Source: Candidatus Obscuribacterales bacterium
GTDB lineage: Bacteria; Cyanobacteriota; Vampirovibrionia; Obscuribacterales; Obscuribacteraceae
DNA length: 64,000 nucleotides
Direction: 5' to 3'
NCBI GenBank assembly: GCA_965228855.1
Contig: CBDDIJ010000002.1
Coordinates: 736,001 to 800,000, forward strand
Positions 18,721 to 48,993 of the stretch are shown piece by piece; within the stretch, counting starts at the first letter, position 1, and each line of letters starts with the position of its first letter. A program made the translations under genes and the position numbers. Under the pieces are notes generated by a model. That model did not search any database, was not told the DNA's origin, and saw nothing but the letters and a program-made list of their open reading frames with translations.

Positions 18721-18812
18721 AGTTTCGCTGCCGACGCGGCGAAACGTGAAATAGAAACTGCCCGGCGCGTCTCGTGAAAACGTGTATCGCGCCGGGCTTC
18801 TCAAAAGCCAGC

Positions 18813-19047
18813 CTACTATATACCGAGGTAGTACACAGCCTCCCGAATACCAGTCACAGCAATGTTTTCAGGATTTCTTATTTATAGTCCGCCCTGAAAT
18901 CGGTTGCTTTGGCTATCGTACGATGACGGTTTTGCCGAAATGCGTCATTGTGGCGTAGACAAAATCACCAAGCGGTTTACGTCTGATACCCAAATCACCT
19001 CGCCTGAAACCATTTCGCGCAAAACGTATTCCTAAGTTCTATAGTAG
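18813..19047. repeat. Repeat element copy A (CTACTATA 18813; 50-bp palindrome 18911-18960; TATAGTAG 19040)
   Basis: GGCTA-TCGTACG-ATGAC-N16-GTCAT-TGTGGCG-TAGAC; gaps 90 and 79 bp. Confidence 0.9.
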
Positions 19048-28613: not shown

Positions 28614-28716
28614 AACGACGATGACCGAAAAGCGTCCCGCCAGCGCTTCTCCAAATCTTCGTGAACGTCTCCGCCTCCCGAGGACCTCCCCAGGTCCTCG
28701 CTTTTACAAGCCACTT

Positions 28717-28940
28717 CTACTATATTCTTTCGTTACTCCGATATCCCAAAAGGCTACGTGGAAGCGGCTTTAAGCCGATGCCTCCCCACTCCTCCCTTCT
28801 TTCCTACTATATTCTTTCGTTACTTCAACATCCCAAAAGACTACATGGAAGAGGCTTTGCGCCGATGTCTTCCATCAAGGTCGCGTGGTTGTCTATGAGG
28901 CGTTGACAGTTTTCACAAAAAGCGGCAATGCCTGATAGAC
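28717..28940. repeat. Repeat element copy B with duplicated left arm
   Basis: CTACTATA at 28717 and 28804; GTCTA-TGAGGCG-TTGAC-N16-GGCAA-TGCCTGA-TAGAC 28891-28940; gap 79. Confidence 0.9.
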
Positions 28941-29136
28941 AAACCCAGCACACCTTGGCGTCTCGGCGGCCTAACATCAGCCATTCCAACTCGTTAGATT
29001 GTTTCCCTCCACAAGGGAATTCCTCAAACAGCAACGCCTGCAATGGTTTGAACCGATTCGTTCACTTCTTGAAGGCTGAAATCGCAGCAAAACGGTTCCC
29101 CTGACAGCGGAACGGAATTAACGAGTTTCCGGCAAA

Positions 29137-29241: not shown

Positions 29242-29676
29242 CCCGCCTTGCGCAGCTCTCGCCAACCCGATTGACCTTAAAAGGCGCTAAAAAGCAAAGT
29301 CCGGTTATCTCGAAGGAAAGCCCGATATTCCAAGGCCGCAGTCCCGCGAGCAACTCTGGACTACACTGCAGTTTCTCTTATCTTGACAATACTGAACTGG
29401 TCTTAACTTGTGATCTTGCAGCCTGAACAAACTAAAGTGAACTCAGCTTCTGACATCAACTTCACCGGTTTCTCACACCCACAGTCTTCCGCATCAACCC
29501 CGAATTTCCGCAGCAGTCTGTGCTCCGGAGAAGACCGTCAGCAGCGAGCGAAGGGCATTCCTAACCCATAATCCAGCAGAACGGATCATGAACGGATTGC
29601 CCGGATGGAACACGCGAAGCGCCTGAGTACAAGCGCGTGTTCTGCAACCCAAACTCAGGCAGATTGGATACACCTA

Positions 29677-30714: not shown

Positions 30715-30795
30715 CGCATACGGTTTGCGGCGAGAGGGAGCATGCTCCTTCTCGCCTGCAGACTGCCTCTTCACACGAACGCATGAGCACATCCA

Positions 30796-31521: not shown

Positions 31522-31590
31522 AACAGAAGCGAGGCCAGCAAAGCGGTTTAAACCCGCCGAGCCGCCTCGCTTCCCCTTTTCCCAATATAC

Positions 31591-31737
31591 CTACTATATT
31601 CTTTCGTATACATCAAGCCCCAAAACAGCGCCCCTGTAACAGTCTTCGACACCAGCCGTTTCGCCAACCCGCACAATATACGGGTTTGGCTACGAGAGAA
31701 TGACAGAATTTGCCAAAAGCGTCATTCTCTCATAGAC
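31591..31737. repeat. Repeat element copy C
   Basis: CTACTATA 31591; GGCTA-CGAGAGA-ATGAC-N16-GTCAT-TCTCTCA-TAGAC 31688-31737; gap 89. Confidence 0.9.
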
Positions 31738-31813
31738 AACAGCTCAGACCTCGTCAATCGAGAATCCCACGATGACCGAGAAGCGCGCGCGTGTGCTCGG
31801 AAGGCAATTTCTG

Positions 31814-32593: not shown

Positions 32594-32780
32594 TATTAGT
32601 ACCTCACTTACGTTTTGAATGTTCAGAGGAGCAAGCCGCAGCCTTTACGTGCCGCGACTTGCTGTTTTGATGCGCACAGTCCGCGTAATATTCCACAGCA
32701 ACCACATCACACCAGATATGGTGTCATGGCTTTGACTTTCACATCTCGTCAGTTTACGAAGAACTCCGCATCGCGCCAGT

Positions 32781-34886
32781 TCACACGGAAGTTGCAAGCA
32801 AACGCTGAGGAATGCGGATTTCCAGCTGGGGAAGCGCCTTCAGCAGCTCATCCTCAGACAGGGGCTCCAGTGATACTTCAGGCAGCCCCTCGCCAAAATG
32901 CCCATCCCAGAGTTGCGCGAACTTGACACGCAGCATGGTTTCGTCTTCGGTGAGCACCGGAGCCAACTCATGCATAAGCTCTGTCAGCGGCTTGAGAACA
33001 CGCTCCGCGCGCAACATACAATCGGCGAGAATCAAGAAGATCTCGTGATCGATCTGGTTGGAACTTTCCGGTCCGATACCGTAGCCTCCGCTCTGAGCCA
33101 TAGTCATGCCCAAATACGGATTGTCACTGGTTCGACCAACGGAGATGGTGCCGAGGTTGCTCATGCCGAAGCGAGTGACCATGTGCTTGGCGATGTCGTA
33201 CGCGCGATCGATGTCGTTTTGCGCGCCGGTCGAACGCGTGCCGAGGAACATCTGCTCCGCGCGGGTAGCCGCCAGCAGCGTGGTGATGCGACCGCGCAGC
33301 TGTTCCCTGGTCTGACAGAACGGCTCCTCGTCGCCCTGAAAGGCCGTGTAACCGCCGGCGCCACCAGCACCGATGATGGTGATCTTTTGAACCGGATCGT
33401 GCCAGAGCCCGCTCCAGTCGCGGCTCAAGCGATAGAGGTATTCACCGACGAGCGCATGACCGAGTTCGTGATAAGCGAGAAGCCGCTTCACATTCGCACT
33501 CAGACGCTTCGACTTGCCCTCAGTCGCCTGACCTCCCATGAAGATCTGAGAGATACCGACATCAAGGTCCTCGCGCGCGACAAACTCCGCTTTCCTGGTG
33601 CGACCGAAGAGCTTACGAGTCCTCTTAATAGCCGCAAGAGGAGCGTGTACCTTAATGACGTCAGCGATGTCCGACCCAACCATGCCGGCCATAGCACCAG
33701 CCAGCTCCCACAGATCGATGGCAGGGTCCAGCTTGACGTTGCGAGCATGAACTTTAATGATTCCGAGCCGACCCTGGCGATCAGGTTCTGACACTATAAT
33801 TTGCGTGCCGAAGCGACCGCCGCGTTTGATAGCCGGGTCGAGAACATCAGGTCGGTTGGTCATGCCGAAGGCAACGAGACCATCAGAGGTATCGAAGCCG
33901 TCGATTTCAGTCATCAACTGCATTAGCGTCTGTTGACGTTCGTCATTTCCGCCACCAACTCCGGTACCACGATGCTGACCGACGGCGTCGAGTTCGTCGA
34001 TAGCCAGGATGCAAGGCAGATTCTTGCGAATCTCAGAGAACAAGTCACGCACACGCGCAGCGCCGACTCCGACGAACATTTCGACGAATTCCGGGGCGTT
34101 GACGTAGAAAAACGGCACGTTTGCTTCGCCGGCAACGGCTTTGGCGAGCAGCGTCTTGCCGGTACCGGGCTTGCCGACCAGAAGAATACCTTTCGAGAGT
34201 TTGCCGCCCAGCTCACGCAATTCGGCAGGATCTTTCAGAAATTCCACGACCATTTGCAGCTGTTCTTTAGCCTCGTCCACGCCTTCGACATCAGCAAACG
34301 TCACCTTCGGACCGTTCTCCGGCTCGAACTTCCTGTGTTTTGACTTGGCGAATTCGCCCGCGCCACCGCCTTGCTGCATATTGCGCATCGAGCGGAACAT
34401 CCAGAAAAGACCTGCGATCGGCAGAGCAAACATAATGAAGGTCAGAAACGTGCCGAGGAGACGCTCGACGCCTGACGCATTGCCGCCTTCGGACGGTCCC
34501 TGAGTGTACTCCTGTTGCACGTCCTTGCCGGCCATCGGCAACGACTGTTTCTTCACACCGGCTTTCTCAGCTTCGCCTGTAATAATGTTGTAGTCGAACT
34601 CACCGGGTATGTCGGCAACAACATTGCTCGAATCGCCGACACCATCGACGATCACCTTGTCGGGAAACTGCCTCAGCCCTTTCACGAACACCAGCTTTTC
34701 GATAGATGCTGGCTCGTTCTTGACGCGCTCAAGCGCTACGCTGAAGTCGATGCGCTTGGCATATGCGTAGTCGGCGGCAGGAATATAAGGACGTTCCATT
34801 GATGAAGTACCGAGCCAAACTGCGACGAACAGCATGCCGAAGCCAGCCCAGAGCAACCATTTCGGGGGTTCTTTGAAAGAGTTCAT
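32781..34886 (-). CDS. ftsH: FtsH-family ATP-dependent zinc metalloprotease (divergent paralog)
   Basis: Two TMs, GKPGTGKT, IDELD, TNRPDVLDPA, HELGH, GAQND. Confidence 0.92.
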   Translation of the reverse strand: MNSFKEPPKWLLWAGFGMLFVAVWLGTSSMERPYIPAADYAYAKRIDFSVALERVKNEPASIEKLVFVKGLRQFPDKVIVDGVGDSSNVVADIPGEFDYNIITGEAEKAGVKKQSLPMAGKDVQQEYTQGPSEGGNASGVERLLGTFLTFIMFALPIAGLFWMFRSMRNMQQGGGAGEFAKSKHRKFEPENGPKVTFADVEGVDEAKEQLQMVVEFLKDPAELRELGGKLSKGILLVGKPGTGKTLLAKAVAGEANVPFFYVNAPEFVEMFVGVGAARVRDLFSEIRKNLPCILAIDELDAVGQHRGTGVGGGNDERQQTLMQLMTEIDGFDTSDGLVAFGMTNRPDVLDPAIKRGGRFGTQIIVSEPDRQGRLGIIKVHARNVKLDPAIDLWELAGAMAGMVGSDIADVIKVHAPLAAIKRTRKLFGRTRKAEFVAREDLDVGISQIFMGGQATEGKSKRLSANVKRLLAYHELGHALVGEYLYRLSRDWSGLWHDPVQKITIIGAGGAGGYTAFQGDEEPFCQTREQLRGRITTLLAATRAEQMFLGTRSTGAQNDIDRAYDIAKHMVTRFGMSNLGTISVGRTSDNPYLGMTMAQSGGYGIGPESSNQIDHEIFLILADCMLRAERVLKPLTELMHELAPVLTEDETMLRVKFAQLWDGHFGEGLPEVSLEPLSEDELLKALPQLEIRIPQRLLATSV

Positions 34887-35548
34887 TGTTACCCTCTTGT
34901 GTTTGTGCGCAGGTCTTTCCCTGCGCGGTGAATGACGGTGAGCAGCAGAAATCGTCTATGGAGCGAGCCGCGGCACCACAAACGAATTCATCTTCCAAAC
35001 CGTTCAGAATGACCTCACGCAGAGGTCGATTTTTCGTCGAGCGATCCCATGGAGCGAAAGTTTGAGGGTCGTGCTTGATTTGCAGATCAAATCTTCTGCT
35101 GCGAACCTCTCGATTTGACACACTTATAAATGCTGGCGGCTCATTCACTTCCGGAGGGGTATCGACGACGAATGTCTGCACCCTATCAACCGGCCGATCT
35201 GACCGCAACAATGAATTCAGCTTTGCCGCCGTCTGGAATTTTTGGCGGATAGCTCAAAAACGCCATTATTCGTGGCGCCGTGGCATAGTTCGCCATGTTT
35301 CACATGAGTCAAAACTGGCTGAGATGGGCCGTCCGTTTGCGAAAGTCACGGGCCACTATGACACTCGGAGGCTTCATCAGTAATGTTTTTTGACGCATCA
35401 ACATTGCTGGCACAGCTACTAGACGCGCTCGACTAGCCAATTTTATCTATGCGAGCGAGAAGTGTCTCGTCGGTTTCCGCCAAACTGGCCTATTGCCGAC
35501 ACATAACACCGACATGCATTAAAATAAAGCGTCTGCCTGGTCGGCAAA

Positions 35549-37021
35549 ATGAGCCTTGCAATCAACCTCGAGTATCAACCTTACGTTCCGCTCTACAGGA
35601 GGCTTTCGGATGCCTTGAGGAAGGCGATTTTGGACGGGCGGTTGCGACACGGAGACGTTTTACCATCGACACGCGAACTGTCGGCGACGATGAAAGTTTC
35701 GAGAGCCACTGTGCTCAAAGCTTTTGACGATCTCGAAACGCAGGGATTCATCAAATCAGTACCGGGAAAAGGTCTATTCGTTCGCTACGCGCCCACTGTT
35801 GAAAAGGTTGTAGCAGATCAGTTCTCCCTGCAAAAACAACTGATCCTATCCGATTACGCTCACCGAGTATTAGCACTAAGAAAGCACGAGTCAATCGTGC
35901 ACATTCCGGCAACAAACTTCGGCGGTCCAACAGCTGACCTGAGTCCACTTCATGAATGGCGCCAGCTCTTATTTCGTTACTGTCGACGATCGTTTTTGTC
36001 TGAGTCCAGCGAGTTGACGTGTATTTCCGACGAGCTGGAGCCGTTTGGGTACGAACCGCTAAGACAGGCTCTGGCTGCCTATCTTCATCGCTCCAGAGCG
36101 ATCCGGTCCGCAGCAGATCAAATCGCTCTCTTTTCGACAAAACAGGCACGGCTCGAGTTGATAGCACGGATGCTTCTTGATGCAGGAGATCTGATCGCTT
36201 TCGAAGATCCCGGATACCCAGAAGCACGTCACCTTTTCTTGTCGCATGGAGTCCGCGTTTTAAGCGTGCCGATCGAAGCTGATGGTATCAACGTTGATTG
36301 GCTCGCACAAAAACATCTGCCCATCAAATTCGTTTACGTGACACCCTCTCATCAAGATCCAACCGGCGTGACAATGTCGATGGAAAAACGTTTCAAACTT
36401 CTCGAATGGGCTCGAACCACAGGCGCTTATATAATCGAAGACGACTACGATTGCGAGTATAGTCACGGCAAAAAATCGCTGCCCTCTCTAATGGGGATGG
36501 ACCGAAATGACAACGTGATCTATCTTGCTTCATTGTGGAAGGTTTTGTTTCAGGTAAATCGATTCGGTATTGTCGTCTTACCGCGAACATTGATACCAGC
36601 TGCGGTGCAAACCAAGTTACACATGGAGAGACACTTGCCTCTGTTAGATCAGCTGGTAATGACCGATTTCATCAACGAAGGTTTACTCGAGCGACATATT
36701 CGAAGAACTCAGCAACGCCTTGCCCGAAAACGGCAAATAATGATCTACGGGCTTACAAAGAACATGCAATCCTTTCTCACTGTTCCAAAGGAAACTGCTG
36801 GAATGCATCTTGTCGTAAGATTTTTCGAGGAGATATCAGAGACCGACATTGAGAATTCGGCGCGCGAATGCGGAATCACTCTTACTGGAACATCCGCCTA
36901 TTATGCCGAAGAAAAGCGCTGTCAGGGCGAATACATCATCCCGTTTTCAGGTGTTGATGAGACTTCTACCGAAGAGCTCGTCGCGAACTGGGCATTGCAG
37001 CTCAAGAGGCTGCAGCAATGA
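35549..37021 (+). CDS. MocR/GabR-family regulator (GntR wHTH + PLP domain)
   Basis: LPSTRELS..VSRATV, EDPGY, YVTPSHQDPTG, IEDDYD. Confidence 0.9.
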   Translation: MSLAINLEYQPYVPLYRRLSDALRKAILDGRLRHGDVLPSTRELSATMKVSRATVLKAFDDLETQGFIKSVPGKGLFVRYAPTVEKVVADQFSLQKQLILSDYAHRVLALRKHESIVHIPATNFGGPTADLSPLHEWRQLLFRYCRRSFLSESSELTCISDELEPFGYEPLRQALAAYLHRSRAIRSAADQIALFSTKQARLELIARMLLDAGDLIAFEDPGYPEARHLFLSHGVRVLSVPIEADGINVDWLAQKHLPIKFVYVTPSHQDPTGVTMSMEKRFKLLEWARTTGAYIIEDDYDCEYSHGKKSLPSLMGMDRNDNVIYLASLWKVLFQVNRFGIVVLPRTLIPAAVQTKLHMERHLPLLDQLVMTDFINEGLLERHIRRTQQRLARKRQIMIYGLTKNMQSFLTVPKETAGMHLVVRFFEEISETDIENSARECGITLTGTSAYYAEEKRCQGEYIIPFSGVDETSTEELVANWALQLKRLQQ

Positions 37022-38520
37022 CGAAAAAATCCGATGCGCCCAGCATGATGAGGATTGGTCATTCTGTCGTCCTACTGGATAGAACCGGCGGAGCGACACG
37101 ACAGCGACAATTGACCGATCAGATACGACGGGCAATCATAGACGGGGCCATTGAGCCTGGCTCCAAATTACCGTCCGTGCGTGAATTTTCTGCCGGACTC
37201 GACGTTTCTCGCTCTACTGTAGTCCGCTGTTTCGAGGAGCTTGCCAGTCAGGGCTATATTGCCACTTCTATTGGTTTTGGAACTGTCGTGTGCAAAAGGC
37301 TTCCGGGCGAGCTATCAGCCCAAGAGATTGCACCACCTGTGGTGCCGAATCAAGAACCCGTCATAAACAAAGTCGGCCTTTCACGCTATGCCTCAAGAAT
37401 TCTCAACGTCAAAGAGGTCGGCTCGCCAAAAGCGGCCCGAGCCTTGAATCCCGGGGGACCGCCGTCCGATGCCGCACCGATTCGAAAATGGCGCGAACTT
37501 TTGGAAAGGCACTGCCGACATAACCTCAATCAGGCAGAATGCGGAACTGATCCTTTTGGGTTGCCACCATTGCGCGAAGCCTACGCGGCCTACTTGATGC
37601 GCAAGCGTGCGCTCCAATGCAGGGCTGAACAGATAATCGTATTCAGTGCTCGGGAGTTACGGCTCGATCTAATCGCACGCATTCTTCTTCAAGAGGGCGA
37701 TGCCGTTGCTGTCGAGAACCCGGGCTATCCAGCCGTCCGACAACGGCTGATTGCAAACGGAGCTCGCGTTGTGCCAATCCCCGTCGATCACCAGGGTCTT
37801 AAGGTCGACTGCCTGGAGATGATGCAAGAACGCGTAAAACTTGTCTATGTGACGCCATCGCACCACGAGCCGACCGGAGCTGTGATGCCCCTGTCACGCC
37901 GACGCAAACTGATTGAATGGGCGAAACAGAACTCCGCGTTTATTGTCGAAGACGATTACGACTCAGAGTTTCGATATGATGGACGTCCCATTCCCTCACT
38001 GCAGGGGCTGGACGACACTGATTCCGTGATTCATCTGTCATGCCTCTGGAAGATCCTCTCACCTGTTTCCAAAATAGGATTTCTGACGATTCCCAATTGT
38101 TTAATCGATGTGTTTCAAGCAGCTAAATCGCTGGTAGAGAGAGATATGCCATTAATCGACCAGTTCGTCCTCACAGATTTCATCAACGAGGGACATCTGG
38201 AACGTCAGATCGCCGCAAACCGAAAAGTCTATGCTACAAGACGCAAACTTCTGGTGGAGGCGCTAAGGAAGCATGTCGGCAGCCTCTCGATTGCCAGTGA
38301 AAGTGCCGGCATGGACTTATTTGTGAAATTTCAAGCCGGTGCGGATGATTCGTTGCTAGTCACGATGGCTGAACAAGCCGGTTTCAAGCTCATTCCCGCC
38401 GGTCCGTACTATTTCGCCGGCGGCGGACAGAACGAGTTTGTCATTCCGTTTTCTCATCTGGACGAGAAACACATCGAATCAATCATTCAAAAGTTCGGCG
38501 CCTCACTCAAAGCTATTTGA
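37018..38520 (+). CDS. MocR/GabR-family regulator, tandem paralog
   Basis: LPSVREFS..VSRSTV, ENPGY, YVTPSHHEPTG, VEDDYDSEF; ATGA overlap. Confidence 0.9.
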   Translation: MTKKSDAPSMMRIGHSVVLLDRTGGATRQRQLTDQIRRAIIDGAIEPGSKLPSVREFSAGLDVSRSTVVRCFEELASQGYIATSIGFGTVVCKRLPGELSAQEIAPPVVPNQEPVINKVGLSRYASRILNVKEVGSPKAARALNPGGPPSDAAPIRKWRELLERHCRHNLNQAECGTDPFGLPPLREAYAAYLMRKRALQCRAEQIIVFSARELRLDLIARILLQEGDAVAVENPGYPAVRQRLIANGARVVPIPVDHQGLKVDCLEMMQERVKLVYVTPSHHEPTGAVMPLSRRRKLIEWAKQNSAFIVEDDYDSEFRYDGRPIPSLQGLDDTDSVIHLSCLWKILSPVSKIGFLTIPNCLIDVFQAAKSLVERDMPLIDQFVLTDFINEGHLERQIAANRKVYATRRKLLVEALRKHVGSLSIASESAGMDLFVKFQAGADDSLLVTMAEQAGFKLIPAGPYYFAGGGQNEFVIPFSHLDEKHIESIIQKFGASLKAI

Positions 38521-38710
38521 GAGGAATTCTATTCTTTCTACTACATCCTTCGTATTTTTTCTACTATATTCTATCAAATACATTCCCAACGTAATAGTAG
38601 AACCTGTGGACGTTTCGACTACTTCCTCACTCAGTCAAATCTCGTTTGGCTACGGGAGAGCGACGGATTTTCGAAAATCCGGCATCGCACCGTAGATAGT
38701 GTGTTAGGTG

Positions 38711-39673
38711 TCAAGCCAGAGTGCTGTTAAACCTGGAATCGAATGGTTGTTTCGAGCGATATACAGCGACCATCATACGGAGAAGTTTGCGTGAGGCGGC
38801 ACAAACAATTACTTTTCTGTTTTTTCCCTTTGCTGCCAGTCGTTTAGCGAATTCAGCCACTGGCGGATTAAACCGAGTGGCGGTAAGGGCGGCCATGTAC
38901 AACATGCTGCGGATCACTGGATTTCCCATCTTCGAAATTCTGGAACGTCCTCGGACTGAAGAACCGGACTCACGGATCATGGGATTCAGACCACAGAATG
39001 CTTCGATCTGGCGCAAGCTCGTAAACGAGTCCATCATCGACAGTTCTGAGAGAAACGTGAATGCTGTTCTCCAGCCGACGCCCTTAATCGTCTGGAGTAA
39101 TTTAGCGTTGCTTTTCAAAGCAGGATTCTCGGAGACCAGCGTCTTCGCCAGCTTTTCCAGTGTTTGAATTTCGTTGGTAATGAACTTCAACATACGCATC
39201 TGAGAGTCTAAAGCGCGCTGGTCCAGGCGTCCCGATTTCATTCGATTTGTGACTTGGGTTTTGGTTTTCTTTAGCGCAGCGAGCTCTCTACAAATGTCTC
39301 TCAGGGAGCGAATGTCAGGATCCATCGGAGACCAAGGAAGGGGCTCCATTTTAAAACAAAAGTCGGCGATGATTTCCGCATCGATTGCGTCGGTTTTTGA
39401 ACGTCTAAATTGGCTCTTGCCGAAGGCGTGTATCAGCGCTGGATTTACCACGCTGACTCGATAGCCAAGTTTGTGTAGAAACTCCGCAAGGGGCTCCCAG
39501 AGCTTCCCCGTAGCTTCCATGCAAAAGTGAACATCCTTACCGGATGCTTGAATCCATTTGACTATTCTCTTGAACCCAGCTGGGTTATTGCTGACGTGCA
39601 GCTTCGAATTCTTCCTGTCCTGGCGATGGCAGTCTAACGTCTCCTTCGATACGTCGATTCCAACAAAGATCAT
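38711..39673 (-). CDS. IS110 recombinase/transposase
   Basis: DEDD: GIDVSK, MEATG, KTDAIDA; C-terminal IKGVG, RESGSS..RISKMG. Confidence 0.95.
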   Translation of the reverse strand: MIFVGIDVSKETLDCHRQDRKNSKLHVSNNPAGFKRIVKWIQASGKDVHFCMEATGKLWEPLAEFLHKLGYRVSVVNPALIHAFGKSQFRRSKTDAIDAEIIADFCFKMEPLPWSPMDPDIRSLRDICRELAALKKTKTQVTNRMKSGRLDQRALDSQMRMLKFITNEIQTLEKLAKTLVSENPALKSNAKLLQTIKGVGWRTAFTFLSELSMMDSFTSLRQIEAFCGLNPMIRESGSSVRGRSRISKMGNPVIRSMLYMAALTATRFNPPVAEFAKRLAAKGKNRKVIVCAASRKLLRMMVAVYRSKQPFDSRFNSTLA

Positions 39674-39714
39674 TGCTCCTACCTCCTGTTGCTGGTTCGC
39701 TTGGACGCGGATAG

Positions 39715-39937
39715 AATCTTGTCAGGGCGAGCCTTGTTTACACGTGCTAAATCGGTCAGGATTTGCTGTAGATAGTGTTCAGCCTTAGAGGACAAGACAG
39801 GAGCGGAAGTCCGAAATCTACGCCTCTGACTTTCTAGCCGGAGACAAAATACTGGTTTCTTCCGCTCCTCTATCCTCGCGTCCTCGGATAGCCTTGCCGA
39901 CTGCACGCTCCTGGTCAACAGCAACGTACCAGTCAAC
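39715..39937 (-). ncRNA. Predicted IS110 bridge RNA (ends approximate)
   Basis: 5' hairpin 39896-39937; target loop closed by 11-bp stem 39799-39809/39859-39869; guides match target and donor. Confidence 0.8.
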
Positions 39938-40104
39938 ATCTAACGTACAAGACAAAAACCAACCGTCAAAAAACGCAGATCCGCGAAACGCCCAACTATC
40001 GAATCTTTTCACCAAAGTGCATCTAGTACCCCATATAGTAGCAAGGGCTGAGAAAAGACGAGGGGGCGCATGGGTAGCGACTCCTCGTCCTAAAGTGAAG
40101 CGGT

Positions 40105-40719
40105 TTAGCGGACGACCTGCCAGCGGTTCGCTTGGTCACCTTCCCAGCGGAGGTGCTGCTTGCGCCCCTGCCAGATCTTCAAACCGTGGCTGCGAAGCAT
40201 CGCTTGTTCCAGTTCGGCCATCGCTTCCGCCTGCCTGCAGAGCGCATGGATCTGTTCCTGGCAGGCGCCGAAACGCCAGCTCATCGAATCCGAGAACTCG
40301 CGCAATTCCTTGTCGTCCGGGTTGGCTTTCGCCTTTTCCCGCAGCGCGACGTCGGCGCCGAGAACATGATTGATCTCCATGTCCCAGATCGCCTGCTCCG
40401 CCTTGCGGCGAGCGTCGAACCAGTTGGACAGCGCGACGCCGACGTTACCCTCGTGCATCACGTCGATAAACGCCTGGCTGCGATTGGCATCGTCCGCGGT
40501 GGCACTCTTCGGCAACGACTCGGCAAGCGCGAGCATCTCGAGGAAGGCCGCTCGCTGCTGTTTCGTCGCAGTGAAGAGCGTTTCGGCCTGGCGCAGGAAG
40601 TCGACCGCACAGAGCACGCTCTTGAACTCCGCGAGGATGTTCTCGAACGTGCGGTCGAACAGTGCAGCTTGCATGGTGTAGAGCGAACGCATGCGCTGCT
40701 GATGTTGTCTCGTGTTCAT
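40105..40719 (-). CDS. Alpha-helical hypothetical protein
   Basis: RBS GGAGGAG, biased codons, terminator hairpin near 40053-40089. Confidence 0.75.
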   Translation of the reverse strand: MNTRQHQQRMRSLYTMQAALFDRTFENILAEFKSVLCAVDFLRQAETLFTATKQQRAAFLEMLALAESLPKSATADDANRSQAFIDVMHEGNVGVALSNWFDARRKAEQAIWDMEINHVLGADVALREKAKANPDDKELREFSDSMSWRFGACQEQIHALCRQAEAMAELEQAMLRSHGLKIWQGRKQHLRWEGDQANRWQVVR

Positions 40720-40724
40720 GGCTG

Positions 40725-41519
40725 TTACTCCTCCTGCCCGGCAAAATGATAGCTGCCGTCGACATCGAACCAGCACTGGATCGAATTGGAGGCAAGGAGC
40801 GCGTCCAGCGTGTGGTCGAGCGCCTCAGCCTGACGCAACAGCGCCGTGAACTCGAACAGCATCGTCCGGTCGCGAATCGTGAGCACCGACGGCTGGTACG
40901 CCTCGACCTGGGCACGAACAACGGCGTGACCATCGTCCCACGACTCGATCGCTTGACCCAGTTTCTTGCGCATGTTTTCGCGCGTGCGCGCCAGGTCTTC
41001 ACCTTCCGGCGAGCCGAGGAACGCGATGAGTTGCGCGTCCTGAGCCTTGTCGGGATCGTTGCCGAGGCGGGCGCACATGGTTGTCACCGCCGATGATGCC
41101 GTTTCGACGGTCTCCAGTATCGTCGAAACCGCACCACTGGAGATGACCGGATGCACAGCTTTGTTCAGCTGCTTCTTGAGCGTTTCGGCGAGCGAGCGGA
41201 CGATCCGCATCGCGGCACGGTGTTCAGACTGAAGCTGTTTGATCCGCTTCTTGACCGAGATCACGGTCTCTTGCGGATAGAGCTTCTCCTTCGAGGAGAC
41301 GAGGACGCCGTCTTCCCAGGTGTAGGTCCCCTCACCGACTAGCGTCTCCACGCCGTCGACCTCGAGGAAAACCTTGGCGACGCCGGTTTTGTTCGGCGTG
41401 CCGAAACTGAAGCGAGGAGGGCTCCCCGCCAAAAATCCGTAACTGACCAGCTGCACGTCATTGTACGTGACGCGCACGTTGCCCGGTTTGTCACGGGGCT
41501 CGAATAGCTCAACGAGCAT
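40725..41519 (-). CDS. Hypothetical protein
   Basis: Codon-biased ORF, RBS AAGGA. Confidence 0.7.
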   Translation of the reverse strand: MLVELFEPRDKPGNVRVTYNDVQLVSYGFLAGSPPRFSFGTPNKTGVAKVFLEVDGVETLVGEGTYTWEDGVLVSSKEKLYPQETVISVKKRIKQLQSEHRAAMRIVRSLAETLKKQLNKAVHPVISSGAVSTILETVETASSAVTTMCARLGNDPDKAQDAQLIAFLGSPEGEDLARTRENMRKKLGQAIESWDDGHAVVRAQVEAYQPSVLTIRDRTMLFEFTALLRQAEALDHTLDALLASNSIQCWFDVDGSYHFAGQEE

Positions 41520-41671
41520 TCTTAAATTCCTTCTGCTTGTTTCAGATTCCAGCACCCGCACACGCGGGTACCAGCACGCAGTGGCTCTTGAAGAAGAGGG
41601 GGATAGGCGACCTCAGCCGCCTATCCCCGGTGTGCCCGAGCCAGGACACATCCAGCCTCAAGAAGCTGGAG

Positions 41672-42088
41672 TTAGCGCTTCGGCATCCGCACAGGCAGCC
41701 AGGTGCGGCCCTTCCAGGGCACTTCACCGACCAGCGTGGCGCCGCCAAAGGCGAGCGAGAACGTCACCAGAGCAGCACCGAACCCGCTCGTGACAGAGAG
41801 CGAGCCAATCAGCAGCGACGCCAGTCCGACGCCCAGCCACGAGCCCAGGATGAAGCACAGATACTGAACGACGCGTCCGGTCTGCATGAGTCCGAGAACC
41901 GCGCGCAGAGCGATCGTGACGCCGAGACCGAAGAACATGCCCGTGACGCCGATGATGGCGGCAGCCATGATACCGGTCAGCAGACTGCCGGCTGACACGC
42001 CGACGCCGAGCAGCAGCGTGATTGCGGCAGCCGCGATGAAGTAGCCGTTCATCAGGAGGAAGTGTCGGCTCTTGAATGCGTGACCCAT
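41672..42088 (-). CDS. Small multi-TM membrane protein
   Basis: Hydrophobic, Gly-rich; RBS AAGGA. Confidence 0.7.
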   Translation of the reverse strand: MGHAFKSRHFLLMNGYFIAAAAITLLLGVGVSAGSLLTGIMAAAIIGVTGMFFGLGVTIALRAVLGLMQTGRVVQYLCFILGSWLGVGLASLLIGSLSVTSGFGAALVTFSLAFGGATLVGEVPWKGRTWLPVRMPKR

Positions 42089-42115
42089 TGGGTTTCCTTA
42101 GTTGTTGAAGGTTGC

Positions 42116-42652
42116 TCAGGCTTGCGGAACCGTCAGATTGACTCCGTTGAGAGACACAGCCTTGGCAACAAATTCACCGATTCGCTGACGAATGGTATCG
42201 TCCGCGATGGCACCGCTCTGAAAAGCGGTCCTGTCCGCATAAACGAAACGTGGAATGACGAGGCAACGAAAGTCCAACATCAGACTGTTTGCGAGCCCCA
42301 TCACAGACATGTAACTAGACCGACCGCCGGCAGCGCAGAGAAAACCAACCGTCTTTTCCGTCCAGCCTTCGCCGGTCAGTTCGACAAGGTTTTTCGCCGC
42401 AGCGCCGACGTCGTAGTTATAAATCGGCACGGCAAGAAGGATGCACGAAGCTTCCCTGACTTTATCCGTGACCTTTTTGACGCTAGACCGACTGTAAGCA
42501 GCCGCACCGTCGCACAGGGGAAGTTTGACCTTTCGCAGGTCGAGAAACTCCACTACCTGACCGGCAGCCACCAGTTGCGCTTCGGTCTCACGAGCAAGCA
42601 GATAGCTTTTGCTATCGGGGTTGAGGCTGGTGCTTATTACCAGGTAGGACAT
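42116..42652 (-). CDS. NADPH-dependent FMN reductase family
   Basis: ISTSLNPDSKS, PIYNY..AKNLVE, AGG. Confidence 0.88.
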   Translation of the reverse strand: MSYLVISTSLNPDSKSYLLARETEAQLVAAGQVVEFLDLRKVKLPLCDGAAAYSRSSVKKVTDKVREASCILLAVPIYNYDVGAAAKNLVELTGEGWTEKTVGFLCAAGGRSSYMSVMGLANSLMLDFRCLVIPRFVYADRTAFQSGAIADDTIRQRIGEFVAKAVSLNGVNLTVPQA

Positions 42653-43518
42653 TCGTTTGTTTCCTTTCCGCTCTTAATCTGTGTCTTGAACGCGTCGAGG
42701 ACGGTCATCTCTCAGATTACCCGAAGGCAATCAAAGATTTGCAAAAACGAGATAGGCGGGGTTTAGAAGTCTTGAGACACAAAGATATAAGAGCGTAAGA
42801 ACTGTGCGACTTTAGAGCAACAGAGACCTCCGATTCCCACTTGAAAAGCCATTTGGTTCAAAACCGTTCACGCCGGCCGTCATGCCCGGAAACAAGGTCT
42901 TTGTTTCTGTTTCAGGCGCTCTGCGCGAATTAGCGCTAGGAATATTACGCGCGATTAACTCGGAAGCAACTAGCCTCGCTAGCGGACGTCTCCTCAAGGC
43001 TATGACACTTGCTAGATTAACCTGCGCTAACCTCGCAAAGCATTTCCGCGCGGAATTAATCTGTCCTTTGCTTGTTCAGGAACTAAATATTCAAAGGCTT
43101 AACCTCGAAAGCTTTCCTAAACGCTCAATGAGTAGGTGTTTCGGGCGCGTGGTTATTTTATTAAACGCATTTGATTTTTGATACATAAGACCCCTAGGTT
43201 GAAAAGTATCATCGCGTTTCAATTTCACTCAGGAATTTCCAAACCAACCCACACCCGCAACTGTAAGCCTGGTTTCGAGCTACTCGAATTGCGCATCTGC
43301 GTAAACCAGCATGTACGTCCGTGAGTTGCCTGGCTGTTTCTGCGTGAACGATGTTCGTTCGGTGGGATGGGTCCTGTCGCACGTCGCCTCTCGAAGTCGT
43401 TTCGATTGGCGGTTCTTACCCATGCGCGTGAAACCGGTTGCTTCAGCTTCCGGGAGATTCGCGTGCGTTTTTTAACCCGTGGACGCAATCGCGCCACACA
43501 AACACAAAGGTGATTACC

Positions 43519-44559
43519 ATGGCTATGACTCGCACTCTCGACGGTTTCGTTCCGGCTTACCTGCTCCAGCAGGCCGCCATCCTGAACCCCAACAACACCT
43601 CGCTGATCGACTCGATCGGCATCACCCAGCGCCTCTCCATCGCTGGTCGCACTCCCCTGCATCCGGCTCTGCGCCTGGCTGTTCTGGCTCCCGGCCAGGG
43701 CGACCGCCGCATCTTCGACTGCAAGGGCCTGGAGCGTCTCCCGGGCGACAAGGCTCGTCACGAGGGCGACGGCGAATACGCCGCTTTCCCGCTCGTCAAC
43801 GACGCCTACCAGTTCCACGGTGACGTTCGCCGCTTCCTGCTCGAGGTCCTCAAGCGCAACTCGCTCGACGGCAAGGGTCTCGACCTGATCGGCAGCTGCA
43901 ACTACGGCAAGGGCTACAACAACGCGTTCTTCAACCAGCGCCAGATGGTCTACGGCAACGGTGACGGCGTCATCTTCGCCAAGTTCATCATCCGCTCGGT
44001 CATCGGTCACGAGATGGCGCACGGCGTGACGCACCACACCTCCGGCCTGGAATACCAGGACGAGAGCGGTGCGCTCAACGAGCACTTCTCGGACGTCATC
44101 GGCGTTCTGGTCGACCAGTTCTGCGACAACGTCACCTCGGCCGCGCACCACTGGCTGGTCGGCCCGGGCCTCTTCACCGACCAGGTGAAGGGCAAGGCGC
44201 TGCGCAGCATGATCGAGCCGGGCACCGCCTACGACGATCCGAAGCTCGGCAAGGACCGTCAGCCGGCGCACATGAAGGACAAGTTCGAGGGCTGGGCCGA
44301 CAACGGCGGCGTGCACATCAACTCGGGCATCCCGAACCGCGCCTTCGCACTGTTCGCCAAGGCCGTCGGCGGCTACGCTTTCGAGCGCCCGCTCGCGATC
44401 TGGTACGCCACCAACTGCGGCGAAGACCGTGTCGGCGCCAACGCTTCCTTCCAGGACTTCGCGGACAAGACCATGGTGCACTGCGCCACGATCGCTCCCC
44501 GCCAGAAGAACAACCTGAAGGAAGCCTGGGGTGAAGTCGGCATCACCGTCGCCGGCTAA
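43519..44559 (+). CDS. M4 (protealysin-like) metallopeptidase, paralog of 6399-7415
   Basis: FVPAYLL propeptide, HEMAHGV, GALNEHFSD, DNGGVHINSGIPN. Confidence 0.92.
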   Translation: MAMTRTLDGFVPAYLLQQAAILNPNNTSLIDSIGITQRLSIAGRTPLHPALRLAVLAPGQGDRRIFDCKGLERLPGDKARHEGDGEYAAFPLVNDAYQFHGDVRRFLLEVLKRNSLDGKGLDLIGSCNYGKGYNNAFFNQRQMVYGNGDGVIFAKFIIRSVIGHEMAHGVTHHTSGLEYQDESGALNEHFSDVIGVLVDQFCDNVTSAAHHWLVGPGLFTDQVKGKALRSMIEPGTAYDDPKLGKDRQPAHMKDKFEGWADNGGVHINSGIPNRAFALFAKAVGGYAFERPLAIWYATNCGEDRVGANASFQDFADKTMVHCATIAPRQKNNLKEAWGEVGITVAG

Positions 44560-44577
44560 CGCTCGCGACTGACTGCG

Positions 44578-44617
44578 AGAGGGGCAAAGTCCAAACGGAC
44601 CTAGCCCCTCTCCTTTT
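44578..44617 (+). terminator. Intrinsic terminator
   Basis: GAGAGGGGC...GCCCCTCTC followed by CTTTT. Confidence 0.75.
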
Positions 44618-44628
44618 CCCGAATTAGT

Positions 44629-44777
44629 CTACTATAGAATACAGTCTAAGCATATCATCCAAAAGCCCCGCCCAGTGATGGTTTAAGCCCCTCCAGACCC
44701 AAGTACTCTGCGCCAAAAATCTGATTTGTCTATCCACCAATGACGCAATTGCGAAATTCCGTCGCTCTCCGATAGAC
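44629..44777. repeat. Repeat element copy E
   Basis: CTACTATA 44629; GTCTA-TCCACCA-ATGAC-N16-GTCGC-TCTCCGA-TAGAC 44728-44777; gap 91. Confidence 0.9.
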
Positions 44778-44946
44778 AGACTCAAAGGCATTGGATAAAG
44801 AGACTGAGGGGCAATAAGCGGTGCACCGGTTGTAAATTGGCGAATTATTTTTCCGCCCGACAACCAGCTAGCGAAACCAAGAAAACGGCACTAGGACACC
44901 AGTGAACTGCTTTCTTGAAGAGAGAATCTGGTTCGCCCACACCGAC

Positions 44947-45624
44947 TTACAAAAATTCCTTCGGCAGCGAATCAAACTGCCCCGACAGCGTGAAGCGATC
45001 ATCCTTCGGATGCTCACCAAGCGCATCGGACAACCTCTCATCCGGCAGCGGTTTGTACGTGACTCGAAAAGAATTTTTCTCAGCAGAGTCTTTCAGATAA
45101 GTGGCGTAGTCATCGCGAATTTGCTCGACTTCCGGATGCTCCAAACCCAATTTCGCGGATTTGATATACATCGCTTGCTGGTAGAAAACGCCCGCCTCAT
45201 CCACCTTCCGCCAGGCATGATAGAGCAACGCGGCGTTGTGCGTAATCGTTCCCGTATCCAAATGGTCCTGCCCAAGACGACGGCGATAGAGTTGCAAAAG
45301 CCTCATCATTACAGGCGCTCCATAATGATATCTGCGGCTACGATAGTAAATTTGCGAAAGAAGCTCCAGCGTAATGCCAACACGTTGGTCGTCTCGGTCA
45401 TACGATTCAGCAATCTCTAAAGCACGAAGACCCGCATGTTCAGCCTCGTCCAGCTTATCGTCCTTAATACACTGTTCAGTCTCAAGAACGTACTTCTGCC
45501 AACGAGCATTGCGCTGCTCCTCGGTTTCATCCACGAAAAAAGGGGCGGCGTCACCATCGCCTGGACGTGAGCCAGCAGGTGAAACACCTTTGTATTCGCC
45601 GGACTGACTTGTGACCTCACTCAT
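44947..45624 (-). CDS. TPR protein (kinesin-light-chain-like repeats)
   Basis: LGQDHLDTG...YQQAM..K..LGLEHPEV. Confidence 0.8.
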   Translation of the reverse strand: MSEVTSQSGEYKGVSPAGSRPGDGDAAPFFVDETEEQRNARWQKYVLETEQCIKDDKLDEAEHAGLRALEIAESYDRDDQRVGITLELLSQIYYRSRRYHYGAPVMMRLLQLYRRRLGQDHLDTGTITHNAALLYHAWRKVDEAGVFYQQAMYIKSAKLGLEHPEVEQIRDDYATYLKDSAEKNSFRVTYKPLPDERLSDALGEHPKDDRFTLSGQFDSLPKEFL

Positions 45625-46206
45625 TTATAGCCGCATTTCTTTGTTTGCCAAAACCGCACACACCGGATGAACAATCCGATTCCGCCCGAAGGCTCGGATA
45701 TTTTACAGCAACAATCGTCGCCAGTTCGTATTCGAAACACCAACAAAGAAATCCAGGAGTAAGATTCCAAGAGATGCATCAATCCCATCCTAACATCCGC
45801 CACATAGCGCGACACCTTGGCAAGTAAACCGATCGTGGCGTCCCGCTTGCCTTTCCAGCCTCTTAGACTCAAGACTCATATTTTTACGCGGTCTTGATTA
45901 CGATGGTCCCAAAGGCGCATTATCGAGAAATCGTTTGTCCCATGCTTGCTTTCACAGGATTGTCTTAGACCACCTATTCCAGCCTGTTTCCAAACTCGTG
46001 CACCTCAACAAGATTGTGAGCCGAGTCAAACCGCATGTGCAACGAAAACGAACCTGCGAAACAGCCAAGAACGTCGCTCCGTCCCGTTACTTGCTGGTTT
46101 TCGCCTGCCCGCCTCAAAGCACCGGTTCGCATTCCAAAGTCGGCAGACCTATCCGTCCGCCGCCCCGTGGCCCAAAAACCACGAGACTGAATCAAGGAGC
46201 CAAATC

Positions 46207-46584
46207 ATGTTCTGGACACTTGCTATTGTCCTCGTGCTCGCCGCCCTCGCAATCGTCGAAAACCGACGACTGAACAAGAAGGACGAGGCCGTGCTTCGAC
46301 ACACCATCGAAGTCAACCTCGGCATTCTGAAAGGCGAGCTCGAAAGATTGGCGCCGCTTGCGAAGTCTCTGCCCGCCGACGATCAAGCCGAAGCCGACAA
46401 ACTCCTGTCGCGCTCCCGCACAATCGTCTCCGACGTCGAACCCCGCATTGCGACTGCCCCTCGCCGCGAGCTAGGAAGAATCCTGCGCGACGTCTTTTCG
46501 GCAATGAATACATCCACCGAGCTGCACAAGCTGCTCGCGAAGTATTCACTCGTGCCGACAATCGAAGACATGCCTCTCGAGTAA
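46207..46584 (+). CDS. Small membrane-anchored helical protein
   Basis: RBS AAGGAG, N-terminal TM. Confidence 0.7.
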   Translation: MFWTLAIVLVLAALAIVENRRLNKKDEAVLRHTIEVNLGILKGELERLAPLAKSLPADDQAEADKLLSRSRTIVSDVEPRIATAPRRELGRILRDVFSAMNTSTELHKLLAKYSLVPTIEDMPLE

Positions 46585-46727
46585 CAGTCCGAGCCTGCCT
46601 TCGAGCCTGAGTCTTTGGTAGCTTGTCGTCAAACGATGACGCCTGGCAATCACTACTCTCAAACATCAACCAAAGACGGTAGCGGGGTGGGAAGCCATTC
46701 TCACCCTTGCTACTTTTCCTTCAACAT

Positions 46728-46965
46728 CTACTATACGCAGGCGTGATTCACCCTTCACCGAAAGGACGAAGTCAGCGGGGTTTCAACTGTTTTCGCTTCG
46801 TAGGTGGTCAGCAAAAACAAGGGTTTGGCTACGACAAAGCGACGGTTTCTTCGAATTTCGTCTACGTGTCGTAGACACGATGCGTCCTCTCCACTTCCAG
46901 AACAGACTAAAAGCTCGCTCCTGAAACCCTTTTGAGTAATTCAGTATCCCGATACTATCTAGTAG
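46728..46965. repeat. Repeat element copy F
   Basis: CTACTATA 46728; GGCTA-CGACAAA-GCGAC-N16-GTCTA-CGTGTCG-TAGAC 46827-46876; TCTAGTAG 46958; gaps 91 and 81. Confidence 0.9.
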
Positions 46966-47058
46966 ACATGTTCAGGGATCGTGACATAGTGGCGAAGCAA
47001 GGCTGCCCGACAAGTCTATTGAGATACAATACCGATCCCCAGCCATAAAGATATAACC

Positions 47059-48993
47059 ATGATCAAAACGGACTTCCTCACTGAATTTGACGTGCATCTC
47101 TTCTCCGAGGGCTCGCATTACCGCCTCTACGACAAGATGGGCGCTCATGTCATCGAGCAGGACGGTCAGGTCGGCACGCACTTCGCCGTCTGGGCGCCAA
47201 GCGCAGAGCGAATCTCCGTTGTCGGAGACTTCAATGAGTGGCGCGCAGGCGCCAATCCGATGACCCAGGTCGGTCAATCCGGACTCTGGACGACATTCAT
47301 TCCAGGCGTCAAAAGCGGTTTCGCTTACAAATATCATGTAACCCCAAACAACGGACAACCGCCCTCAGAGCGGTCCGACCCGTTTGGCTTCTACGCTGAG
47401 GTTCGACCAAAAACCGCCTCACTCGTTTGGAATCTAGACCAATACAAGTGGCAAGATAAGGCTTGGATGGAGAAGCGGAAAAACCGAAACGCGCTCGATG
47501 CGCCGATTTCCGTATACGAAGTCCATCTGGGCTCCTGGATGCGAGTTCCCGAGGAAGAAAATCGCTGGCTCACTTACAGAGAGCTCGCTGACAAACTCAC
47601 TGCTTACGTCAAAGAAATGGGTTTCACACACGTCGAATTCCTGCCCATCGGCGAGCATCCACTCGATATTTCATGGGGCTATCAGCCGATCGGCTATTTC
47701 TCACCAACCAGCCGTTTCGGCACACCGGACGACTTGATGTACCTGATCGATCAATTACACCAGAACGACATTGGGGTTCTCGTTGACTGGGTGCCCGCTC
47801 ACTTTCCCAAAGACGGGCATGGATTGGGCATGTTCGACGGCACGCATTTGTACGAACACGCCGACCCGCGCCAGGGCGAACACAAAGAATGGGGCACCTA
47901 CATTTTCAACTACGGTCGCTACGAAGTTGATGAATACTTGACCTCCAACGCATTCTTCTGGCTGGACAAATACCACATCGATGGTCTGCGCGTCGACGCC
48001 GTCGCCTCGATGATCTACCTGGACTACGGCCGCAAGGACGGCGAGTGGATCGCGAACCCATACGGTGGTCGCGAAAATATCGAAGCGTTGAATTTCTTGC
48101 GCAAACTGAACGAGCGCATCTATTCCAATTACCCGGACGTGATGACGATCGCAGAAGAATCAACAGCCTGGCCATTAGTGTCGAAACCGACATACATTGG
48201 CGGTCTCGGTTTTCATCAAAAATGGGATATGGGATGGATGCACGACGTGCTCGAGTACATGGCGCATGAACCGATTCACCGCAAATATCACCACGACAAA
48301 CTGACTTTCCGCGGTTTATATGCATTCTCGGAGAACTTCATTCTGCCTCTTTCTCACGATGAAGTTGTGTACGGAAAACGCTCACTTCTAAACAAAATGC
48401 CGGGCGACGAATGGCAGCAGTTCGCGAATTTGCGCCTGCTGTTTGGTTTCATGTACACCACACCCGCTAAAAAATTGCTGTTCATGGGCGGCGAGTTCGG
48501 ACAATGGAATGAATGGAACAGCGCAGTCAGCCTCGATTGGCATCTTTTGAACAACCATTTGAACAAGGGCGTTCAAAACTGGATGCGCGATCTAAACCAC
48601 CTCTATTCCGACGAACCCGCTATGCACGAACAAGATTGCGTCGGACACGGCTTCGAGTGGATTGATTGCAGCGACGTCGAACAAAGCATAATCTGTTTCT
48701 TGCGAATAGCGAAAGATCCGGAAGACGTTCTCATGGTTGTCTGCAACTTCACACCCGTGGTGCGCCACGACTACCAAGTTGGCGTTCCCTTTGGCGGCTA
48801 TTGGAAGGAAGTTCTAAACAGCGATAGCACCGTCTATGGTGGCAGCGGCGTCGGCAACTACGGCGGCAAAGATGCATATGACGGAAACGTCCACGGCAAA
48901 CCGCACGGTCTGTCGTTGACGTTACCGCCTCTCGGAATGCTCGTTTTCAAACCAGAAAGCAAACCGGCCAAAACGATCGAAAAGAAGAAATAA
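47059..48993 (+). CDS. glgB: 1,4-alpha-glucan branching enzyme
   Basis: YEVHLGSW, DWVPAHF, GLRVDAVASM, AEEST, LSHDEVV. Confidence 0.97.
   Translation: MIKTDFLTEFDVHLFSEGSHYRLYDKMGAHVIEQDGQVGTHFAVWAPSAERISVVGDFNEWRAGANPMTQVGQSGLWTTFIPGVKSGFAYKYHVTPNNGQPPSERSDPFGFYAEVRPKTASLVWNLDQYKWQDKAWMEKRKNRNALDAPISVYEVHLGSWMRVPEEENRWLTYRELADKLTAYVKEMGFTHVEFLPIGEHPLDISWGYQPIGYFSPTSRFGTPDDLMYLIDQLHQNDIGVLVDWVPAHFPKDGHGLGMFDGTHLYEHADPRQGEHKEWGTYIFNYGRYEVDEYLTSNAFFWLDKYHIDGLRVDAVASMIYLDYGRKDGEWIANPYGGRENIEALNFLRKLNERIYSNYPDVMTIAEESTAWPLVSKPTYIGGLGFHQKWDMGWMHDVLEYMAHEPIHRKYHHDKLTFRGLYAFSENFILPLSHDEVVYGKRSLLNKMPGDEWQQFANLRLLFGFMYTTPAKKLLFMGGEFGQWNEWNSAVSLDWHLLNNHLNKGVQNWMRDLNHLYSDEPAMHEQDCVGHGFEWIDCSDVEQSIICFLRIAKDPEDVLMVVCNFTPVVRHDYQVGVPFGGYWKEVLNSDSTVYGGSGVGNYGGKDAYDGNVHGKPHGLSLTLPPLGMLVFKPESKPAKTIEKKK

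Follow-up and report, generated by a model that had tools for sequence, protein, structure and literature searches.

Antisense transcription start sites close to terminators occur naturally, with a normal -10 element and an atypical -35 region (Harden et al., 10.1101/663534). In the accessible part of that study, these starts lie near intrinsic terminators, have a sense-like -10 and lack a standard -35, and are both loosely placed (within 200-500 bp, at ~20% of terminators) and poorly conserved. In an engineered and constitutive counterpart, a synthetic one-way terminator combined with an antisense promoter at the 3' end lowers expression of the gene to a degree that scales with promoter strength (Brophy and Voigt, PMC4731013, as far as the accessible text goes). 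In an excludon, as described in the accessible text of Wurtzel et al. (PMC3377988), one long transcript both opposes one gene in antisense and serves as leader of a divergent gene.

The module described here shares with the natural starts its location near intrinsic terminators, a sense-like -10 and the lack of a standard -35, and with the engineered part its layout of terminator and backward promoter. It differs from the natural starts, as reported, in being one motif at a fixed 14-19 nt, conserved across the family, directed at one gene class and accompanied by a phased upstream palindrome, and from the engineered part in that it would be natural, repeated ~150 times and equipped with a candidate regulator site. 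We regard this backward-promoter layout as a variant of terminator-proximal antisense promoters, with a function that we infer.

The stretch of DNA analysed (hereafter the window; 64,000 nucleotides, positions 736001-800000 of contig C2 of genome G000) belongs to Candidatus Obscuribacterales, a non-photosynthetic sister group of cyanobacteria, and contains dnaA and other origin-region genes. Genes were called with a dicodon caller made for this analysis rather than taken from a standard annotation. Contigs of sequencing runs X3 and X5, which may be the source sample, matched 27700-47600 with zero differences, so that the module sequence is not an assembly artefact. Run X1 was probably DNA, and run X2 consisted of short pieces of other organisms' genes and left the module uncovered. 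Rfam (at gathering thresholds) and ARAGORN searches revealed only a tRNA-Asp in the window.

At the locus from which the analysis started, an M4 (thermolysin-family) peptidase gene with GC-rich codons (43519..44559, plus strand; Pfam PF01447/PF02868; GC3 0.89) is followed by a terminator-like stem with a pyrimidine tail (44577..44620, plus strand; stem 44577-44612), and the hairpin at 44570-44625 has a folding energy of -25.2 kcal/mol (z -4.8). The stem has no A-tract on its 5' side and is predicted to act one way. Facing the gene from beyond this stem is a box on the minus strand (44629..44647), made up of the core TATAGTAG at 44629-44636 and a weaker AC[GT] six bases upstream. With the -10 placed at 44631-44636, the predicted antisense start would lie at ~44624 (44622..44626, minus strand), 5 nt before the box. 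A spacer with phased A and T tracts (44648..44726) separates the box from a 52-bp palindrome (44727..44778), 98 bp from box 44629, which is predicted to be a protein-binding site. The interval singled out in the first-pass annotation (44578..44777) contains most of this palindrome, which that annotation did not name. On the boxless side of the palindrome lies the 3' end of a TPR-protein gene (44947..45624, minus strand; GC3 0.53). The window also carries a paralogous M4 peptidase gene (6399-7415), inverted with respect to that at 43519-44559 and 74% alike over 626 bp.

The same parts recur elsewhere in the window. A stem, a duplicated box (28717 and 28804, with the 87-bp repeat beginning at the box) and a palindrome (28890-28941) span 28679..28941, and behind the peptidase S51 gene a stem, box 31591 and a palindrome (31687-31738) span 31526..31738. 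Two-armed modules occur at 18760..19047 (stem 18760-18797, box 18813, palindrome 18910-18961 and a sense-facing box before a Ser/Thr kinase gene at 19072), at 46685..46965 (stem, box 46728, palindrome 46826-46877 and a box before glgB at 47059) and at 38561..40089 (boxes 38561 and 40034-40041, stem 40057-40089), the last being interrupted by an IS110 element (transposase 38711-39673) that sits in the outer box of palindrome 38647-38698. Exact copies of CTACTATA start at 18813, 28717, 28804, 31591, 38561, 44629 and 46728, and exact copies of the reversed box TATAGTAG at 19040 and 40034. The first-pass annotation had described seven backward and two sense-facing boxes, a tally that holds when the duplicated 28717/28804 box is counted once. 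The sense-facing boxes that it saw pointing toward the kinase and glgB were located at 19040-19047 and 46958-46965, the glgB box being the one-base variant TCTAGTAG. Likewise, the terminator hairpins that it had placed about 10-20 nt from a box at six loci are all present, with gaps to the backward box of 15 nt (18760-18797 and 40057-40089), 16 nt (28679-28700 and 44577-44612), 17 nt (31526-31573) and 21 nt (46685-46706); no terminator-like stem precedes box 38561. Separately, three to four imperfect direct repeats of 30-38 bp lie at 29137-29250, upstream of the 29677 gene.

Exact matches to the box CTACTATA (reversed: TATAGTAG) number 292 throughout the genome, where Markov models of order 1-6 predict 33-170, and 217 of the 292 lie in the first 1.2 Mb of C2. 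A symmetric profile search with a cut-off of 16 (best score in shuffled DNA: -11.7) revealed 210 copies of the palindrome genome-wide, clustered into 160 loci, with 174 of the 210 copies located between 77 kb and 1.12 Mb of C2, in a 1.06-Mb origin-proximal zone. The palindrome consists of four G[TG]C-NNN boxes that form two 17-bp dyads, 33 bp apart. Boxes were found on 239 of the 420 palindrome sides, yielding the profile CTACTA-TA-N6-[CA]GTA, and 232 of the 292 exact boxes lie at most 300 bp from a palindrome. The distance between the two elements falls into classes of 75, 86, 98 and 109 bp, corresponding to whole helical turns in ~11 bp steps: 236 of the 239 distances are within 74-76, 84-88, 94-100 or 106-111, and the phasing resultant is 0.79-0.81 at a period of 11-12 bp. 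The intervening spacers contain phased A and T tracts, and their sequence drifts at about the neutral rate while their length is held to whole helical turns.

Two dyads 33 bp apart, 100-150 bp upstream and in helical phase, have the spacing of a sigma-54-type enhancer. With the start as predicted, the dyads would lie at about -100/-133 or -112/-145, resembling the NtrC enhancer at glnAp2, whose two dyad sites are described as ~three turns apart, at -108 and -140 (accessible text of PMC5159524). Sigma-54 itself (PF04552) was found in none of five genomes (91-95% complete), in a search whose control was positive in 4/14. Sigma-54 promoters have a -24/-12 element consensus, and the box is unlike this element. 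An NtrC-like gene at C2:1713001-1714209 scores only in G000 and G007 among five genomes, with a match that skips profile positions 65-92; it sits in an unrelated operon, belongs to a family that is common in Melainabacteria and is a weak candidate for the palindrome activator. The analysis identified no cognate palindrome-binding protein. A MerR-type HTH protein of 405 aa is encoded at G000 C2:82811-84028 (L229), behind a sense-facing box also retained in G002.

The boxes have a strongly preferred direction. Box-bearing palindrome sides face the 3' end of a gene in 150 of 206 cases and a start in 56, whereas boxless sides face 59 3' ends and 55 starts (p 2e-4). The preference is tied to codon usage. 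GC3 exceeds 0.7 in 47% of the 807 genes between 62 kb and 1.12 Mb of C2 versus 2.7% of 5364 genes elsewhere. Within the zone, 109 of 288 GC-rich gene ends have a box facing them versus 1 of 289 GC-rich starts, the latter figure covering the 250 nt upstream that were scanned, in a class of genes that often have longer leaders. For the other genes of the zone the figures are 42 of 254 ends and 25 of 327 starts, and a reversed-motif control hit 1 GC-rich end, 0 GC-rich starts, 3 other ends and 1 other start. GC-rich genes account for 100 of the 150 genes faced from the 3' end versus 18 of the 56 faced from the start (p 1.4e-5). As to content, the GC-rich genes of the zone include peptidases, FtsH and Clp-like copies, MoxR/vWA-like genes and many small unknowns, with native-type genes interleaved; the class is likewise present in the G001, G002 and G005 stretches, and forms a small island near G000 C5:1591000-1607000. 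The very start of the contig (G000 C2:1-61400) holds transport and inositol-catabolism-like genes with a GC3 of 0.8-0.95 and no module; it is likely a chimeric join from another organism, and C1 and C4 look similar.

The position of the box relative to the terminator is also constrained. Among 105 strong stems, the gap to the box was 14-15 nt in 42, 13-19 nt in 80 and less than 13 nt in 4, versus 14% of stems at 13-19 nt in shifted controls. The end-to-end arrangement proposed in the first-pass annotation, with the predicted antisense start next to the sense 3' end, is supported, and backward promoter-like boxes set at a constant distance from terminators and combined with a shared candidate factor site extend genome-wide. 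Only 9% of box-facing hairpins have a far-side A-tract, so these hairpins are predicted not to stop RNA made in the backward direction.

If the box is a promoter, its polymerase, parked or running head-on at the hairpin, might serve mainly to stop or recycle polymerase, ending read-through from strongly transcribed GC-rich units, with little antisense RNA entering the gene. The start would then coincide with the pause site of the sense polymerase; moreover, only 29% of box-facing stems have at least 5 T in their tail, and head-on collision at a hairpin can terminate transcription in E. coli (accessible part of 10.1101/2022.10.23.513370). However, boxes are commoner at convergent GC-rich ends (61/83), where a head-on polymerase is already supplied, than at tandem ones (48/205), and the U-tracts at box ends are stronger, not weaker, than those at boxless GC-rich ends (p 0.002). 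We consider this role distinctly unlikely.

With its -10 at TATAGT, the box has an inferred start 5 nt outside it and ~9 nt past the stem, and intrinsic termination releases RNA ~9 nt past the stem. This -10-like TATAGT lies 14-19 nt past the stems on the antisense strand, and it falls in the TAnnnT class of the host, members of which are sense-biased upstream of native genes (TATAAT 162:78, TATAGT 123:84). The box profile has no -35 column, and neither a -35 hexamer nor a TG extension was found in it; a consensus promoter scan of 38-48 kb returned 2 promoter-like sites versus 4.7 in shuffles. In sigma-70 -10 elements, -12T, -11A and -7T are the most conserved positions, and the inner and downstream bases are free. 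The box has an odd profile that is the reverse of this, with CTACTA 95-99% fixed and the would-be -11A at 86% (TCTAGTAG in 19 of 239 boxes), which suggests an alternative sigma factor or an extra contact.

G000 has 19 sigma-70-family genes. The only one in the zone (G000 C2:706807-707640; L272:3807-4640) is GC-rich and ends at a terminator and a triplicated variant box. With likely orthologues in G007, G002 and G005, this sigma factor is a lead as candidate for recognition of the box. Elsewhere in the genome, a second RNA polymerase beta-subunit gene (G000 C3:2668579-2672370; L228) is 43% identical to the main rpoB, and a motif search for a second beta-prime gene in G000 yielded none.

The first-pass annotation had gone further and proposed an excludon-like life-stage switch, in which one factor turns on the kinase and glycogen genes and shuts the neighbouring peptidase clusters. 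Both modules and excludons would set antisense transcription against one gene beside the expression of a neighbour, and 28 of 160 loci do combine one backward with one sense-facing box; furthermore, 38 of the 56 sense-faced genes are of the native codon class. However, the module system is not an excludon as described by Wurtzel et al., because sense and antisense transcription would come from separate, outward boxes rather than from a single dual RNA, and most boxes face gene ends (150 of 206). Sense-facing boxes are also scattered relative to the start codon (median 181 nt, 10-90% range 35-601), the variant box at glgB loses the would-be -11A, and in G001, G002 and G005 neither palindrome nor exact box occurs in front of the kinase and glgB. 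Of the earlier interpretation, the backward box layout and the end-to-end geometry stand; the excludon, the kinase/glycogen programme and the life-stage role are unsupported. We consider a life-stage switch of this kind highly improbable, and the links to kinase and glgB are lineage accidents.

The distribution of the two elements among relatives differs. A strict palindrome pattern occurs 92 times in G000, 64 times in G007 and once in G006, and in none of 38 other relatives. The sole G006 copy lies on a 2.4-kb contig, in a genome that has two versions of one stretch (84%, ~71-79%), and may come from a second strain. A metagenome scan returned 110 palindrome loci, 103 of which match G000 (median identity 91.6%) and represent a third lineage with the same phasing; another hit (L160) fits the pattern and scores below the profile cut-off. 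A hit in an Acidobacteria-labelled record (L066-L068) is 82-95% identical to G000 C2 561-567 kb, pointing to a record that is likely mis-binned.

In the stretches fetched from G001, G002 and G005, gene order and the GC-rich class are kept and the palindrome is absent. Twenty sites from these three and from G012, which belongs to another genus, were chosen by box pattern from longer match lists, and 19 were scored: of these pattern-picked sites, 12 have a strong stem upstream of the box, in 5 of the 12 at 14-15 nt. Several of the relatives' box sites align to slots that hold modules in G000. At the slot of the M4 peptidase, the orthologous hairpin is followed in G005 by a box scoring 13.2 and in G002, by eye, by a weaker look-alike. 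Over 248 kb of relatives, the box profile gave 11 matches at a score of at least 14 versus 0 for the reversed profile, 18 versus 9 at a score of 12 (column-shuffled maximum 20), and 45 versus 46 at a score of 9, which is not above the control; a looser box pattern exceeded its reversed control in none of the genus's other genomes searched. Since the stem spacing of the box is shared by relatives that lack the palindrome, the box appears to be old and the palindrome a later, copied add-on, with moderate statistical support in the relatives.

Comparison of G000 and G007, which are collinear over 400 kb with 93 palindromes, revealed a divergence of 0.014 in the box, 0.042 in the palindrome and 0.10-0.17 in the spacer, relative to 0.147 and 0.093 at fourfold sites and 0.055 in other intergenic DNA (near the 0.042 of the palindrome). 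On either side of the box lie mutation hot spots, at -1 to -5 (0.16-0.34) and +19 to +23 (0.40). Tandem copies begin at the first C of the box, with no upstream identity in 38 of 72 G000 pairs, and the 10-nt linker before duplicated boxes is poorly copied (42-64% alike). Some arms at distant loci are 70-79% alike. At 8 of 52 orthologous slots in the third lineage, and at 2 of 64 in G007, a completely different spacer follows a flank that has stayed the same. A whole gene that G007, G002 and G005 retain is missing from G000 at window position 18813, the loss extending to the box. The palindrome arm is thus subject to copying and turnover, and its box end stays fixed. Two mechanisms were considered and ruled out: integron attC-like cassette shuffling at the palindrome, given the collinearity with G007, and DGR-like error-prone rewriting of the spacer, since changes affect the four bases equally, at a mean rate about that of fourfold sites.

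These observations raise the alternative that the box is no promoter, and marks the fixed junction of a selfish, REP-like element (box, spacer and palindrome) for which a palindrome-bound protein nicks or primes at the box, with insertions and adjacent deletions stopping where selection protects the terminator. The start of duplications at the box and the poorly copied linker, the flanking hot spots, the likeness of distant arms and their replacement at orthologous slots, and the gene deleted up to 18813 all fit this alternative, as does a palindrome subtype that builds 73-bp arrays and inserts without a box (boxless in 18/19). As with REP/REPIN sequences (PMC3116915, in the part accessible), there are more than 200 extragenic palindromes, tandem arrays, turnover between strains and targeting by IS110. 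In contrast with them, however, the module is confined to one zone and keeps a fixed phase to a second motif. As regards a hairpin kept by compensatory change, its arms appear to pair poorly, with 0.659 identity to their own partner versus 0.620 to random partners (66% vs 62%), and folding energies lie between -15.7 and -18.4 kcal/mol, with z-scores of -1.8 to -4.8. No RAYT or Y1 transposase was found (PF01797: 0 matches in G000; control positive in 6/14), a search for IS91-type transposases gave no match, its control being silent as well, TnpB was absent from G000 and G007, and no reverse transcriptase, Ku, primase-like or XerC-like genes were confined to module-bearing genomes. Target-site duplications were not evident at the 24 two-armed modules inspected. 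What further argues against a selfish junction is that relatives without the palindrome have the box 14-15 nt behind terminators, that decayed palindromes are rare (score <35 in 6/210) and that gene order between modules is unshuffled over the 400 kb shared with G007. We regard this alternative as unlikely. Nevertheless, the duplications starting at the box and the wholesale spacer replacement resemble what a site of recombination or priming would produce; an open complex might render the box site fragile, and, as the gene lost up to 18813 indicates, boxes can also come to lie next to terminators through erosion and selection.

In the accessible description of the PeSL cassettes of T4-type phages (PMC2839356), a promoter plus hairpin is, as in our modules, repeated in a variable accessory-gene region. 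Those cassettes carry complete -35/-10 consensus promoters, are directed at downstream genes and undergo module shuffling, whereas the modules described here face 3' ends, are chromosomal (two scans gave 0 palindrome matches in viral contigs) and leave gene order intact.

IS110 elements of two kinds insert in the palindrome (window 38696-39960; C2:858552, 1120761 and 987682): three identical copies occupy its outer box, and of four related copies, one was observed within a palindrome. The non-coding end of the IS110 should encode a bridge RNA aimed at the palindrome. A retron-like reverse transcriptase gene (G000 C2:944459-945628) ends directly at a box, and related genes adjoin Ku in G001, G003 and G004. 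The XerC-like proteins encoded at G000 C2:923144-924056 and 369776-370714 are close copies, with 18-25 matches in G001, G003 and G004 (L230-L249), two of them flanking glgB; their catalytic Arg and His motifs are changed.

Given the zone in which the modules lie, they might also act as conditional DNA-unwinding or priming sites (initiator sites, phased spacer and a TAG-TAG repeat) that restart or amplify the origin-proximal region. The 1.06 Mb that hold 174 of the 210 palindromes also hold dnaA, duplications start at the box, and TAGTAG is its invariant core, a repeat that we take to resemble DnaA trios. However, the zone extends unequally to the two sides of the origin (~-730/+330 kb), the observed link with terminators and gene direction is unexpected of origins, and contig depth, although weak data, has no peak at modules apart from the IS. 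This explanation, too, is very improbable.

The antisense-promoter reading is favoured by the stem gap, the preferred direction, the agreement with the -10 class of the host and the persistence of the box without the palindrome. We give about an even chance to the reading that box, stem and palindrome together form a terminator/antisense-promoter module with a shared upstream protein site, lowering the expression of GC-rich units. RNA polymerase would initiate at the box, perhaps being the same enzyme after termination and turning round, and the backward RNA would read through the one-way hairpin into the gene, where transcriptional interference or RNA pairing would reduce expression of the GC-rich unit. 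The palindrome, 75-109 bases from the box, would be the docking site of one shared tuning protein, a dimer of dimers on the two 17-bp dyads that might touch polymerase across the bent spacer in either direction, which would explain the two-armed modules. Repeated in this way, the module would allow a single protein to damp a whole gene set through antisense transcription. In the G000 lineage, the spread of the palindrome arm would have come about through events whose fixed end is the box.

Whether antisense transcription in bacteria is noise or selected is debated, partly since antisense promoters are poorly conserved. Here, one motif lies at a fixed distance behind more than 100 terminators, across genera, aimed at one codon-defined gene class, and the modules provide ~150 base-exact predictions of antisense starts. 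In the accessible Obscuribacterales/Melainabacteria literature we found nothing on this element or on a two-codon-class zone, and supplements of genome papers could list such repeats. A palindrome that spreads by docking in helical phase on an existing signal would be a route for quick regulon wiring. More tentatively, and as a doubtful proposition for now, Obscuribacterales might possess a second gene programme, comprising several hundred GC-rich genes for peptidases, chaperones and membrane proteins together with a sigma factor that shares their codon class, within a 1-Mb origin-proximal zone, and hard-wired antisense promoters at transcript ends might hold this programme down; in the lineage studied here, a self-copying two-way enhancer docked on nearly all of these promoters might have turned them into a master switch operated by one protein.
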